Positions 38,523 to 44,298 of a stretch of DNA of 64,000 nucleotides are shown in pieces (position 1 is the stretch's first letter; every line of letters begins with the position of its first letter). Under the pieces are notes generated by a model that searched no databases, was not told the DNA's origin, and saw only the letters and a list, made by a program, of their open reading frames with translations. This DNA comes from Emiliania huxleyi CCMP1516 (Eukaryota). The DNA lies in NCBI RefSeq assembly GCF_000372725.1, contig NW_005201392.1, positions 190,521-254,520 on the forward strand, in the 5' to 3' direction. The position numbers and the translations under genes are program-made.

Positions 38523-41384
38523 ATGCCACGCTTAGCGTCGACGATCATCGCAATCGCCATCCCAGCCATCGCGGCCATCTCCGTGCAAGGTGCCCGACGC
38601 CGTCTTGCCTACGGCGGGCGTGACTACGACTGGCCCGTTCATTGGGAAGGGAAGTCCTTCGCTGACGCGTTTGAACAATCACCTGCTCGGCCGATGCACT
38701 CAGACGGCAGAGACATCACCAGCACAGACGACTGCCCGGCGCCGCTCAAGGCGGCGTGTGCCTCGAAGGGTGCGCGAACTGGCGGCCTAGCTTAAAGGCG
38801 TAGAACTGCGAAAGTCACATGGTAGTGAGTTGCTTCTGCCTCAGGCGTCAAGGCGGCTCACCTTGAGGGGCCCATCGCTTGCGGCGGCCAGGGCGCGTGG
38901 TGCCGCATCATGCCGAAGGCCGCTACCCGCCTTGCACGCCTCCCGGCCACTCCCTCTGCTCCTCACCGCTCCCACTCCTCCTCCCATGCCGAAGGACAAC
39001 TTCCCAACGCCATGCGGCGATTTCGGGAGCGCCTGCGGCGAGTTTAGCGACCCTAACTTCTTCTACTGCAACGGGACGACGGTGCGGAGTTCGTGCCCCT
39101 TAGCTACGTAGTGCCACACATGATACCTGAGCTCTCTGTGCCAGCCGCGTGGATTGACGGGTGCTTGACGTTCGACCCCCTCCTCGCTGCGCAGGGCAAT
39201 CTCCTGCCGGAGGGCGAGATAGGCCACGCCCACGGCTTCCGCCGCGACGCCACCTACACCGCCGAATCTGGCCTGGGGAGCGGGTGGCTCCAGGACCACT
39301 GGTGATCGCGCACCCACCAGCCGTAAGTGCTGTCGTCGTCCGAGCCATGACAGTGGCCGTCCGTGCCTATGATAGGTTCCGTGCCTACTCGGGCACCCTG
39401 CACTGCTGTTGCAACCCGTTCTCCGCGACCGGTGTGGTCAACCGGATGGACGCGGGCACCGACGGGCGGCCCGAACAGGAGATCGATCTGGGGTGGTGCG
39501 AGGGGGAGGAGAAGCAGGATCCGCTCTACAGCGGTGGCGAAGAGTGCTGGTCGGTCGAGTTCTTTGGTGACTATATGGCACTGCCGCTCACGGCGGCCGA
39601 GATGCCGCCACCCTACCCCAACATTTTGCCTGGGGAGGGGTCGCCATCTCCGTCGCCCTCGCCCTCGCCCGGCTCCAAGACATATGTCATCTCGGGAGGG
39701 AGCTTCATCTCCCCGTACTACGACTTTTCGCCCGCGCTCGAGCCCCTCGAGCCGGGCATGACGTACACCTTCGAAGCGGCGGGCATTGCCGCCAACCACC
39801 CCTTTGTCATCGCAGTGGCGTGGGGCATCGTCCCGGAGCCGCTCCCAACGCCCTTTCTGCAGGTGCCAGGGGAGCCGCTGCGACTCCTCGCCGGACGCAC
39901 ACGCAGACTCCCAAGACTCCCAACCTCCCCCGTAGGAGGGAGCGTTCCCGCTCGTCGGCAGCAGCGGGACCGTCACCTTCACTGTGCCGCCCTCGTACAA
40001 CGGCTCTCTCCGCTACTACTGTGACCGGCACGGCGACATGTCAGCGCTGCTGCCGCTCGCCGGCGTCGGGCCGCCAGCCCTCACGTGTCCATCGGAGGTG
40101 TGCGACTTCATCTGCCAGCCCTCCGCGTGCATGCTGCCCTCCTGCTCCCAGCTCTGCTCCAGGTGCTGTGTGCCAGTGCCGACGAAGCCACCCCCAGCGC
40201 CGCCACCGCCGGCATCCTCCTTGCCGCCACCCTCCCCCGCGACCGCCTCCGGATGCAACAGCGACGGGTGGTGCCAAAGCCCGGAGGGCCCATCGCAGCA
40301 GTGCGCAGACGACGCTGGACCACCATGGGCAGACGACCTGGATAACTTTGGCGCAAACGTCCGCTACCACGACAACACGCCCGCCGAGCCCATCCTGCCG
40401 GCAGACGGCGCCTGCCCTGGCGCCCTTGCCGGAGCGTGCGCTGTCAAGGGTATCAAGGCCGCCTATCTTGATGGACCGATCGACTGCGGCGGGCAGGGCT
40501 GGTTCTGTCGCATCATGCCGCAGCCCGGTTGGGGGGACTGCAGCTATGGCGACTGCAACTTTGCGAACTGTGCCACGCCAAACGCGGACGAGCTCGACAC
40601 GGACGGCCACTGTCATGGCTCGGACGACGACAGCACTTACGGCTGGTGGGTGCGCGATCACCACTTCCGAGGCTATACAGGCACGCTGAACTGCTGCTGC
40701 GGGTCAGCGACGCACTTCACCGCACCGCCTCCGCAACCCTCCCGCGTCTCTAAGTTGCGCCCGCCTTGTAGGTGGGGTGAGCCGATGCACGGTGTCGTCA
40801 ACCGCTGTGACTACCGCAAGCCCGTCAGCGGGGACGAGGTGTCTACTTGCCGCGACGCGAACGAGGAGCACAGCGTTGATTTCAACCCCACGTGCGACGC
40901 CCATCCTCTCAAGCCCGACCCGGTCACGAACGGCGGCATGTGCTGGACGGTGCGCAGCTTTGCCGCCAAGGACGACGACGAGGGCGGAGGAGGAGGCGGC
41001 GGCGGCGGCGGCGATGACGATGATGAGGAGGACGGGGAGGAGGAGGAGGAGCCCGAATGCTCCACGTTAGAGGACAGGGAGGAGTGCGAGGATGCAGACT
41101 ACTGCAAGTGGAAGAAGAAGAAGCAGCAGTGTAAGGACGGCAATCAGGACGATGACGATGACGACGAGGAGGAGCCCGAATGCTCCACGTTAGAGGACAG
41201 GGAGGAGTGCGAGGATGCAGACTACTGCAAGTGGAAGAAGAAGAAGCAGCAGTGTAAGGACGGCAATCAGGACGATGACGATGACGACGAGGAGGAGCCC
41301 GAATGCTCCACGTTTGAGGACAAGGAGGAGTGCGAGGACGCGAGCTACTGCAAGTGGAAGAAGAAGAAGTGTAAGGACAAGTAG
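38523..41384 (+). CDS. Secreted multidomain protein: signal peptide, two homologous Cys-rich domains, cupredoxin-like domain, Pro-rich linkers, acidic C-terminal repeats
   Basis: Hydrophobic N-terminus. A duplicated domain (G.KAA.L.GPI.CGGQG..CRIMP...GH.HG...DH.FR.Y.GTL.CCC). NHPF...YYCDRHGDM matches a type-1 copper ligand pattern. Confidence 0.7.
41040..41381 (+). repeat. 120-bp coding tandem repeat (about 2.8 units; EEEPECSTLEDREECEDADYCKWKKKKQQCKDGNQDDDDD)
   Basis: Seen directly in the sequence. Confidence 0.95.
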
Positions 41385-41871: not shown

Positions 41872-44298
41872 TCAGCCCTTCTTGCGGAAGCTGCCCTTGC
41901 TCTTTCGCTTGTGGAAGGCAACCGGCGCGGCGGCGGCGGCCGCTTCCTCCGCCTCGCCCTGCAGCGCGGCTTCGCGGATGACGTCGGGCACCTGCGGAGG
42001 CCCAACAAGCGCCGAGAGTGAGGGGGCGGTGTCGAAGGCGGGCGGTGTCCGGTCGGGCGGCCGCGCGCCGCATACTTTGCCCGGACCTGGTCGACGATGT
42101 CTTGCCGGTCGTCCTACAGTCACGACCTCTCCTCCTCCGTCCCCGCCGGCCCCTCTTATCTCAGCGGGGGGGGGGGGGGGGGGGGGGGGGGCACTCCTTT
42201 TTTTTTTCGGGCCCCCCCCCAAAACCCCAAGGGGGGGGGGGGCCTTTTTTCCCCCCCCCCCCAAATGGGGGGGTTGGGGAAGGTTCCACCCCCCCCCAGG
42301 GCCCTTCGGGGGGGGGAAAGAAGGGTTTTGAGGGGTGGTGGGGAAAGAAAGGGGGAAAAAGGCCCCCCAGGGGAAAAAAAAAAGGGGGGAACCCCCTCCC
42401 GGGTCCCCCCCCCTTCTAACCCCCTTTCCCCCAAATGAAATTTTTCCCAATCCGCGGGCCCCAAAACCTTTGGAAGGATTTGTGGCCCCCCCCCCCCCCC
42501 CCTAAAGGGGCCCAGGGCCGGGCTTTTTTAAAAAAACCTCCCCAAAAACACTGCCCCCCCCCCNNNNNNNNNNNNNNNNNNNNNNNNNNNNNNNNNNNNN
42601 NNNNNNNNNNNNNNNNNNNNNNNNNNNNNNNNNNNNNNNNNNNNNNNNNNNNNNNNNNNNNNNGCCCCGCATCAATGGGTCGCCAGGAGCGGGCGGGCCT
42701 TCCTTCGTAGAGCTGCGGTGAACCGCTCCGAGGGAGCTCCCCCCAGCCTACCATGGAAGGGCAGTGGGCACACCTTTCCAGGACCTGTAGGAGCGAGGGT
42801 CAAGACCGCCCGGAAGCTTGGCGCCCGAAGAGATTCAAAGATCTGGTTGCGGAGTAGCTTCCGATCCCAAAGGCCGCGTCGCGGAAGCCGCCTACGCCCG
42901 AGGCGCCGTACCCGCACTGCTGTCGTCATTACTCAGCGCGCTCGACGAGGCGGCGACGGTGAGGGGCTGAGAGGGGGCAGCGAGGGGTGAGAGAAGACGG
43001 GCGGAGCCACATCCCGGCTCCGCCCTCCTCCTAGCCCCCTCTCGCCCAATCGCAATCTCTCCCAGTCCGCGCGCACCGAACCCTGTCGACGGATCTGCAG
43101 CCTCCTCGCCCTCCGCCTCAGCGGCGCCAGCGCCGGCCTCCTGTAGCAGAGCCTGCACGAGAGCACTGCCGCCCGCCGCTCCGCCGCTCATGGCCTCGCC
43201 GCTCGATGCGCCGCCGCCACTGTCAACGCCGCCACCTCCGCCGCCGCCACCGCCGCCGCCGCCGCTGCTGCCGCCGCCGCCGCCGGCACTAGCACCGGCA
43301 CCGGTGTCAGGCAAGCGGGCGGCGCGGGAAGGCCCCAGCGCCGCGCCTTCGCCGAAGAAGTCATACTCGGCCTCCTCCGCCGCCGCGCCCGCCGCCGACG
43401 CCGCGCCCGCCGCCGCTGCTGCGTGGGCCTGCCCCGCCGCTTCGTTGGCCAGCCCCGCCGCTTGCGCATCGGTCGAGCCCTCGCTCCAGCCGGCAGGCGC
43501 CTACCCACAGCACACGAGGCACCTCGCGAAGCGGTAGCCCCACGCCTCGACCCTCCCCGTGCGGCGGGCGCGCCTCCCATTGCGTCGTCTGGCTCGCCGC
43601 GTGGTAGTAGTACGGCACGCCCTCGGGCGAGTAGCCGCACTGCCAGCCGGGAGCGCCGCCGCCGCCGCCAGAGCTTGCGGCGGCGGCGGCTGGGTTCTCC
43701 CACTGCGTGGCGCCCGTCTCCTCGTGCACGTAGTAGAAGCTGTCGGGGAAGGGGGAACGGGGGGTGGGGGGTTGCATGTGCATGTGCATGTGCATGTGCA
43801 TGTGCATGTGCATGTGTCTCTTGCTCGGTCGAGTCACCGGCCGTCTGGGTTGGCCTTGACCCTCCAGCCGTCGGGCGGAGGCAGTGCTTTCCCGCCGGCC
43901 GCGCCGCCGGCCGCGCTGCCAAACGCGGCACCGCCCAGCTGCTGCTGCTTCGCCGAAGCGAGCCGCGCTTCCAACTCGGCGAGCCGCGCAGCCCGGTCCG
44001 CCGGCCCGCCGCCCACCGCTGCGACCGCACCACCGCCGCCGGAGCGAGGGCCAGGGCCCGCGTCTTTCATGTACTGGCGCATCGCGTCGCGCTCGATCTT
44101 TTGCAGCTCGCGGCTCACCTCCTGCTCCTCGTGCCGCCGCTCGCGCCCGCGCTTGCGCATGTCCTTCATGAAGAGCTCGACGATCTCCTTGTGCTTGCGC
44201 CCATTCTCATGGAAGGCGATGGACGGCTTGGAGCCGTTGATGAAGATCTTGCAGTACTCGCACCAGTGGCGGGCCTGAGAGACCCAGTACTCCGTCAT
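41872..44298 (-). CDS. WBP4: WBP4/FBP21-like splicing factor (U1-type zinc finger plus two WW domains), interrupted by a sequence gap
   Basis: MTEYWVSQARHWCEYCKIFI...HENGRKHKE; WW domains GWR...FYYVHEETGATQWENP and GWQ...YYYHAASQTTQWE; C-terminal VAFHKRK. The join across the N-gap is inferred. Confidence 0.8.

Follow-up and report, generated by a model that had tools for sequence, protein, structure and literature searches.

How new introns acquire their sequence has long been poorly understood, and the source is known for very few gains. The available text on Daphnia describes polymorphic new introns with direct repeats, parallel gains in 43 of 90 cases and few sources found (PMC4202315). 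For Dictyostelium, sources are given for 2 of 98 gains (PMC4683709), and the available account of Fusarium and Cryptococcus reports no sources found for their gains (PMC3514964). Sources identified for earlier gains are, in the accounts at hand, mitochondrial DNA, rRNA or doubtful foreign matches. A 2012 tabulation lists five events of intron gain by break repair and three of intron transfer, both proposed routes (PMC3443670), and the symmetrical multi-copy introns described in the available part of PMC8469720 are different from the present insert. The main text of PMC4202315 contains none of the terms 'inverted', 'template' and 'reverse complement', and a term search of the main texts of two Introner surveys (PMC9860276, PMC12130899) returned no mention of haptophytes. 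Our literature search, of incomplete coverage and with most subscription papers outside it, returned no report of the locus described below or of an intron formed from an inverted exon of its own gene. Here, we analyze a probable intron of this kind in a 64,000-nucleotide stretch of Emiliania huxleyi CCMP1516 contig NW_005201392.1, referred to as the window.

Host gene and domain architecture

The host gene, delineated by RNA joints and translation, comprises the following features, all on the forward strand:

38523..41384, + strand: host gene, seven exons, open frame of 793 codons
38770-38844, + strand: intron 1
38919-38994, + strand: intron 2 (GC-AG)
39082-39194, + strand: intron 3
39302-39375, + strand: intron 4, the subject of this work
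39863-39935, + strand: intron 5
40703-40771, + strand: intron 6
39668..40061, + strand: cupredoxin-like middle domain, a lead from the Atlas, lying between the two arms described below and looped out by their predicted duplex

The encoded protein has a signal peptide predicted by eye, two copies (D1 and D2) of an unnamed Cys/Trp-rich domain that are 37% identical (blastp, E 2e-32), the cupredoxin-like middle domain and acidic repeats. Two UniRef proteins labelled Emiliania huxleyi, P0001 and P0024, match the gene product nearly letter for letter. The Cys/Trp-rich domain family is widespread, with 127 representatives, and received no name from Pfam, from a PDB sequence search or, for domain 2, from the Atlas. 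The cupredoxin label that the preliminary description gave to the middle exons stands as a lead: Pfam returns no match, whereas the Atlas gives a feature match (0.92) to a cluster in which 40% of members carry PF00127. The middle domain contains a His ... Cys-x2-His-x2-Met motif, putatively copper-binding as in cupredoxins. In P0001, P0024 and P0028, Asp replaces the His of the putative Cys-x2-His-x2-Met motif (about 40030-40032, in the region of residue 366, YYCDRHGDM), so some insert-type alleles may have lost a copper ligand in this domain.

Several other features of the gene vary or stand out. Intron 2 is flanked by an 11-nt direct repeat, CATGCCGAAGG (38909-38995), and has no counterpart at the matching D2 position; it looks like another intron born by repair or duplication, and a search of the window did not find its source sequence. 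D1 of the window allele carries four introns and D2 one, with zero positions in common, a sign that introns of this gene turn over rapidly. Intron 6 is 69 nt long, in frame and stop-free; P0001 and P0028, though otherwise spliced, keep it, and P0024 and P0033 have lost it by splicing. The acidic Cys/Lys-rich repeat forms three tandem 123-nt units at 41013-41381 and only two in P0033, so its copy number varies. Several near paralogs of D2 (window 40376-40967) occur in the same sequencing runs at 90-95% DNA identity, differing at the last residue of the DHx motif (Tyr, His or Trp). Relative to the runs covering 38512, 39535 and 40226, the window shows a missing C and two substitutions, which are probable assembly errors or strain-private changes. 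The upstream gene, extending to 37807, ends in what is presumably an alpha-tubulin C-terminus motif, and downstream the sequence at 42150-42663 is homopolymer-rich and poor up to an N gap, resembling a read tail rather than biological sequence.

Sequence and junctions of the insert

The elements that compose the insert and its template are as follows:

39300..39365, + strand: arm 1, inverted copy of the domain-2 exon, 64 nt intronic plus two exon bases
40598..40663, + strand: arm 2, the template, D2 coding sequence that stops at the homolog of the insertion-site codon
39302..39375, + strand: 74-nt intron, GT..AG, phase 2, within the Trp codon (TG/G)
39300..39303, + strand: entry microhomology TGGT, pairing with ACCA at 40660-40663 and also present in the intron-less host sequence
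39360..39369, + strand: return microhomology, TCCGTG (matching host 39378-39383) followed by CCTA (matching host 39384-39387)
39366..39376, + strand: palindrome CCTAT-G-ATAGG, which supplies the acceptor AG at 39374-39375, presumably through snap-back synthesis
39301..39303, + strand, with a second copy at 39375-39377: GGT direct repeat flanking the insert
39281..39409, + strand: homeologous block, in which, with the intron omitted, 38 of 55 nt are the same as 40643-40697

The preliminary description had proposed an intron made of a perfect inverted copy of a downstream exon, and the sequence bears this out. Positions 39300-39365 are the reverse complement of 40598-40663 at 66 of 66 nucleotides, the match ending there on both sides, and the chance expectation for such a 66-nt inverted pair in the window is about 1e-28. 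The arms are separated by 1232 nt, and the insert is located where the template ends in the paralogous domain, at the homologous codon of D1 versus D2, as had also been noted. All 64 nt of the intronic copy (64/64) derive from 40598-40661. In total, local templates account for 71 of the 74 bases of the intron, the exceptions being 39370-39372, and the microhomologies at the three switches measure 4, 6 and 2 nt. The host sequence without the insert reads CAC TGG TTC CGT GCC TAC, and TCCGTGCCTA is present twice across the acceptor (39360-39369 and 39378-39387), again as first described. Entry-type TGGT sites number eight on the reverse strand of 3101 nt, and by a null count the return 6-mer match occurs at 7 of 3091 reverse-strand positions. 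The 38/55-nt block around the site is the second-best block between D1 and D2, and the template may end at the homologous codon because D1/D2 homeology allowed pairing first, followed by a switch to the opposite strand. The other five introns of the gene have no window match over 12 nt and no local template.

Alternatively, the piece might have come from elsewhere, as a dispersed paralog, an RNA or cDNA copy, or a mobile element carrying it. Near D2 paralogs do exist (contigs 90-95% alike, proteins 91-96% alike) and could in principle have served. The cis copy, however, matches at 66 of 66 positions, whereas the paralog contigs differ at 40619, 40628 and 40637; the copied segment is confined to one exon and thus bears no sign of cDNA; and the insert has no terminal inverted repeats and one inverted match only in the window. 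We regard an origin elsewhere as very improbable. Self-blastn of the window also lists other inverted pairs, at 52804-52856/53235-53287 (53 nt, 96%), 54075-54157/58463-58546 (84 nt, 90%) and 33869-34145/42664-42954 (292 nt, 85%).

The insert as genomic DNA

Sequencing runs were used to assess whether the insert exists in genomic DNA. The stretch, or part of it, occurs in 15 of the 19 runs listed, and eight were compared with the window. The organism-labelled runs, three with label A and one with label B, come from at most four studies, and one possibly represents the window's own strain. In all four of these, and likewise in X7, a DNA metagenome, contigs break off at 39329 and resume at 39336. 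These breaks lie 30 nt inside each repeat end, as a 31-mer graph demands; both insert junctions are therefore spanned by contigs. The left contig of X6 extends to 39365, no joint omitting the insert is found in the five DNA-type runs, and two of two close metagenome contigs (L001, L002) carry it unchanged. An assembly or cloning chimera might have been suspected from the low-quality sequence and gap 1.5 kb downstream and from the three apparent base errors within the host gene (38512, 39535, 40226). The coverage of both junctions by contigs of all five DNA-type runs and by L001 and L002 nevertheless makes this explanation negligible. Its suggestion that the insert is very recent holds in part: the copy shows no change in 64 nt and alleles without it exist, but it is not private, being found under two organism labels and in wild metagenomes.

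Splicing and the predicted RNA duplex

Excising 39302-39375 (74 nt) yields GWLQDHW followed by FRAYSGTLHCCC and an uninterrupted 793-codon frame, as the preliminary description stated, and retention would bring in a TGA stop at 39303-39305. RNA contigs of three studies (X10, X12 and X14) contain a joint at 39300/39375 which, with GT..AG ends (cut +1), corresponds to the skipping of 39302-39375. Of these, X10 and X14 do not bear on splicing, as they read TGG at 40662-40664 and are of the allele type (B, below) that lacks this intron in its DNA. In X12 (polyA), exon 4 and the domain-2 codon both agree with the window, on separate contigs, and the spliced mRNA of an allele bearing the alternative intron Y, described below, would look like that of X12. 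P0001, P0024 and P0028 are spliced, read DHWFRAY and combine the window markers Leu168 and His575 in one molecule. The junction check proposed earlier thus returned the exact 74-nt skip in X12 and in P0001, P0024 and P0028, with DNA and RNA coming from different samples. GT/GC..AG ends together with precise removal from mRNA (X12; P0001, P0024, P0028) are those expected of a U2-type intron. A TGAC lies 27 nt upstream of the acceptor, and the neighboring introns have no uniform branch motif.

It is very probable that 39302-39375 is spliced as a precise intron. The opposing possibility is a disabling insertion, in which the insert is retained, with the stop at 39303-39305, or is poorly spliced because donor and branch region are hidden in the duplex, and other alleles are the source of the spliced RNAs. 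The predicted duplex does span the donor, the pyrimidine tract is the weakest among the six introns (0.50 versus 0.57-0.70), and two of the three RNA runs are of the intron-less type. Weighing more heavily, P0001 and P0024, which bear the E. huxleyi label, and P0028 are spliced with insert-type markers, the insert form is the only one in all four organism-labelled DNA runs, and the remaining frame is intact. We therefore consider a disabling insertion unlikely.

The 66-bp duplex between the arms is predicted at -153.7 kcal/mol, and 65 of the 66 arm-1 bases pair with arm 2 in the pre-mRNA fold. The preliminary description suggested that this structure may affect splicing; mature transcripts, however, retain every exon between the arms. 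No exon-skipping or back-splice joints between the arms are listed for X12, at a contig depth of 5-9 and in contigs, which drop rare forms. The duplex is most likely a neutral by-product, and splicing probably commits ahead of arm 2 transcription.

Alleles at the site and intron Y

Allele states were read from predicted proteins (ORF calls) rather than DNA, and intron retention is described as frequent in this species in the available text of PMC4028052; in principle, then, partly spliced RNA could underlie an intron-less read. All 15 members of a read-through ORF cluster and all 11 of a full-length cluster were examined. Nine of the 15 read-through members are insert-type, seven ending after DHW and two beginning within the insert, and two start downstream. 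Type B is represented by P0047, P0051 and P0053 (six contigs), which read through introns 3 and 5, are uninterrupted at DHW, carry Ile168 and have no D1 intron. A diverged copy, P0044, is likewise uninterrupted at DHW. The search for alleles lacking the 74 nt, which the preliminary description had set as a check, therefore succeeds at the protein level with P0047, P0051, P0053 and P0044.

Type C is P0058, which reads GWLQDHW, then YRCRFPPRCFPRRE, then a stop; it is one of 15 cluster members and a single 763-nt contig, and could be a D1-D2 deletion or a chimera. In D2, four full-length cluster members read DHHF as in the window, P0033 reads DHWF and three are uninformative. P0025, P0026 and P0027 read DHW in D2, followed by the same YRCRF peptide or a variant of it. 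A TGG followed by a Tyr codon implies an intron starting with GT inside the Trp codon, which we name Y. The read-through of Y is identical over 14 residues between P0026 (domain 2) and P0058 (domain 1, one contig), and the two Y sites share an 11-nt target. The corresponding D2 position is the following:

40662..40664, + strand: polymorphic codon at the template edge, CAC (His, no intron) in the window and TGG (Trp) with Y inside in the B-type (X10, X14; P0033, P0025-P0027)

P0026 joins Ile168 to Y in D2. For P0051 and P0025, the source, the number of contigs and the longest contig (2934 nt) are identical, a hint that both come from one contig. As read from these translations, B would have a D1 without intron and Y in D2, C would have Y in D1, and the window combines the inverted copy in D1 with an intron-less CAC in D2. 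P0058 shares its Leu and its intron-3 'GL' markers with the insert-type P0048.

Across the family, the motif can be matched in 78 of the 127 representatives, many of them transcript-derived, and the site residue is W in 70, F in 5, Y in 2 and H in 1. Departure from the family sequence immediately after this residue is seen only in P0074 (1 of 78). In this distant protein (61% identity), DHW is followed by a Tyr codon at which the similarity to the family breaks off, as would fit a third, unrelated intron at the same phase-2 site. The nearest D2 paralogs, P0072, P0142 and P0125, are apparently genomic and have Tyr, His or Trp there without an intron; X7 contains a related copy with a His codon. 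Since family, paralog and type B reads are uninterrupted, the empty state is probably ancestral for the site, although the direct ancestor of the insert allele may have carried Y there, as P0058 does.

Both polarities of the D2 codon stand. In the first, His is the older state and TG[Y]G reached B when its D2 was converted by a D1 carrying Y, which requires fewer events; in the second, Trp and Y are old and the D2 of the window was converted by a His paralog. The first would give the 4-nt entry microhomology for free, as TGG would match only 2 nt. The reading of CAC as a derived scar is weakened by the His and Tyr found in intron-less near paralogs. The presence of Y in domain 1 and domain 2 likely reflects transfer between the domains, and the site codon, on these sequences, reads as an intron hotspot with traffic between both domains. 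In the search for genomic sequence of alleles B and C, a metagenome scan returned two contigs of the insert type and three short, unrelated matches; viral scans returned none, and a prokaryote scan four chance-level matches. Seven of eight alternative-frame ORFs of the window, looked up to extend Y, were absent from the collection.

Origin of the insert

The preliminary description attributed the insert to a template switch between paralogous domains. This account is upheld: the paralogous domain served as template, every switch shows microhomology, and other alleles lack the insert. Its further claim, that the insertion was rescued as an intron, is partly sustained, in that the insert is genomic and most likely spliced, whereas it may instead have replaced an older intron, given Y at this site in P0058.

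We favor, with moderate confidence, a fresh gain, in which a break at the empty Trp codon in domain 1 was repaired by microhomology-mediated templated insertion. In its favor, the junctions account for both splice sites with no need of Y, and empty alleles exist. A staggered break at CAC TG/GT in domain 1 would have come first, and the broken end would then have annealed to the homologous stretch in domain 2, which is 70% identical and lies 1.3 kb away. A TGGT/ACCA switch to the opposite strand would have allowed about 60 nt to be copied backwards, after which synthesis would have returned to the host via TCCGTG, copied CCTA, made TAGG by snap-back and rejoined at GG. Finally, the duplicated GGT would have provided the GT donor and the snap-back the AG acceptor. 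With donor and acceptor so placed, splicing leaves the codon unaltered, so that neutral spread of the allele was possible. Some observations weigh against this scenario. P0058 has Y at the same nucleotide with the markers of P0048, so that an independent gain there would be a hotspot coincidence, and the template lies 1.3 kb off, beyond the 100 bp searched according to the available text of PMC8421209.

The alternative is intron replacement, in which the ancestor had Y at the site (allele C), Y was cut out or broken, and the gap between its GT and AG was refilled by templated copying. The position of the intron would then predate its sequence. P0058 is its main witness, with Y at the same D1 nucleotide and the Leu and 'GL' markers of an insert-type protein. 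The inferred DNA ends (left ..TGGT, right GG..) fall within 2 nt of the expected borders of Y, and replacement would account for the immediate spliceability of the insert. In domain 2, moreover, alleles with Y have TGG where the window has CAC, the change expected if a domain 1 carrying Y had left a conversion tract there, and the near D2 paralogs without an intron include His and Tyr forms (P0142, P0072). These points are offset by the nature of P0058, a single member of 15 and one 763-nt contig for which a deletion allele or a chimera (domain 1 fused to the Y of domain 2) is conceivable. Furthermore, no Y remnant is visible past the GT, the 5-bp palindrome fully explains the acceptor, and weak tests returned no additional Y copy in the window (six-frame scan, best score 33), in viral contigs or among longer proteins (only P0001). 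We hold replacement as a tentative reading. On it, one codon may have seen an intron gained, passed between paralogous domains and overwritten, Y being excised from D1 and the gap refilled by a backwards copy of D2, so that an intron of entirely different sequence came to occupy the old position.

Comparison with known systems

The favored fresh gain by templated insertion invites comparison with several described routes of intron gain. Like the gains in Daphnia, as described in the available text of PMC4202315, it involves a new intron segregating within a species complex, a short end repeat, a restored codon and different introns at one site. Unlike gains of the Daphnia type, its source is fully readable and is an exon of its own gene in inverted orientation. 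The insert resembles Introners, as characterized in the available text of PMC9860276, in being recent and having a 3-nt direct repeat, and differs from them in being single-copy in the window, lacking terminal inverted repeats and consisting of host-exon sequence. Where Introners are recognized by many near-identical copies, the sole match of the insert in the 64 kb is its own exon template. Intron Y, for its part, recalls Introners in that its two sites, both in this gene, have an 11-nt target in common. Tandem duplication and intronization, as outlined in the portion of PMC3443670 at hand, likewise use host coding sequence and a duplicated G/GT as donor; here, by contrast, the copy is inverted and non-adjacent, and DNA was inserted rather than an exon converted.

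Intron Y has its own parallel in the transfer of introns between paralogs, as tabulated in the available text of PMC3443670. It occupies homologous positions of two paralogous domains and the flanking codon co-varies with it. Unlike those transfers, it would have moved within one gene, between domains 37% identical in protein, and it is known from peptides alone.

The closest mechanistic likeness is to MMB-TI (PMC8421209), to SD-MMEJ or polymerase-theta end joining (PMC5728401, PMC7407515) and to the four-point template switch (PMC5453318), which, in the available accounts, share an inverted nearby template and microhomologies of 2-6 nt. The likeness to MMB-TI and SD-MMEJ extends to several rounds of copying, a snap-back palindrome and a return to the host. 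Two features set the present insert apart from those pathways as there described: its template lies 1.3 kb away and was presumably chosen by the homeology of paralogous domains, and its product is most likely a working spliceosomal intron rather than a damaging scar.

This is a single locus and a known class of mutation. In it, the source, every switch point and the origins of both splice sites are readable, while intron-less and alternative-intron alleles appear to be still segregating in this bloom-forming, much-sequenced marine alga. With strains and reads that already exist, the locus allows two questions to be tested: how regularly templated repair gives rise to introns, and whether parallel gain or replacement accounts for different introns at one site. 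If replacement proved true, 'parallel gains' at one site would partly represent intron replacement by break repair, and paralogous domains would serve as mutual repair templates at intron sites.
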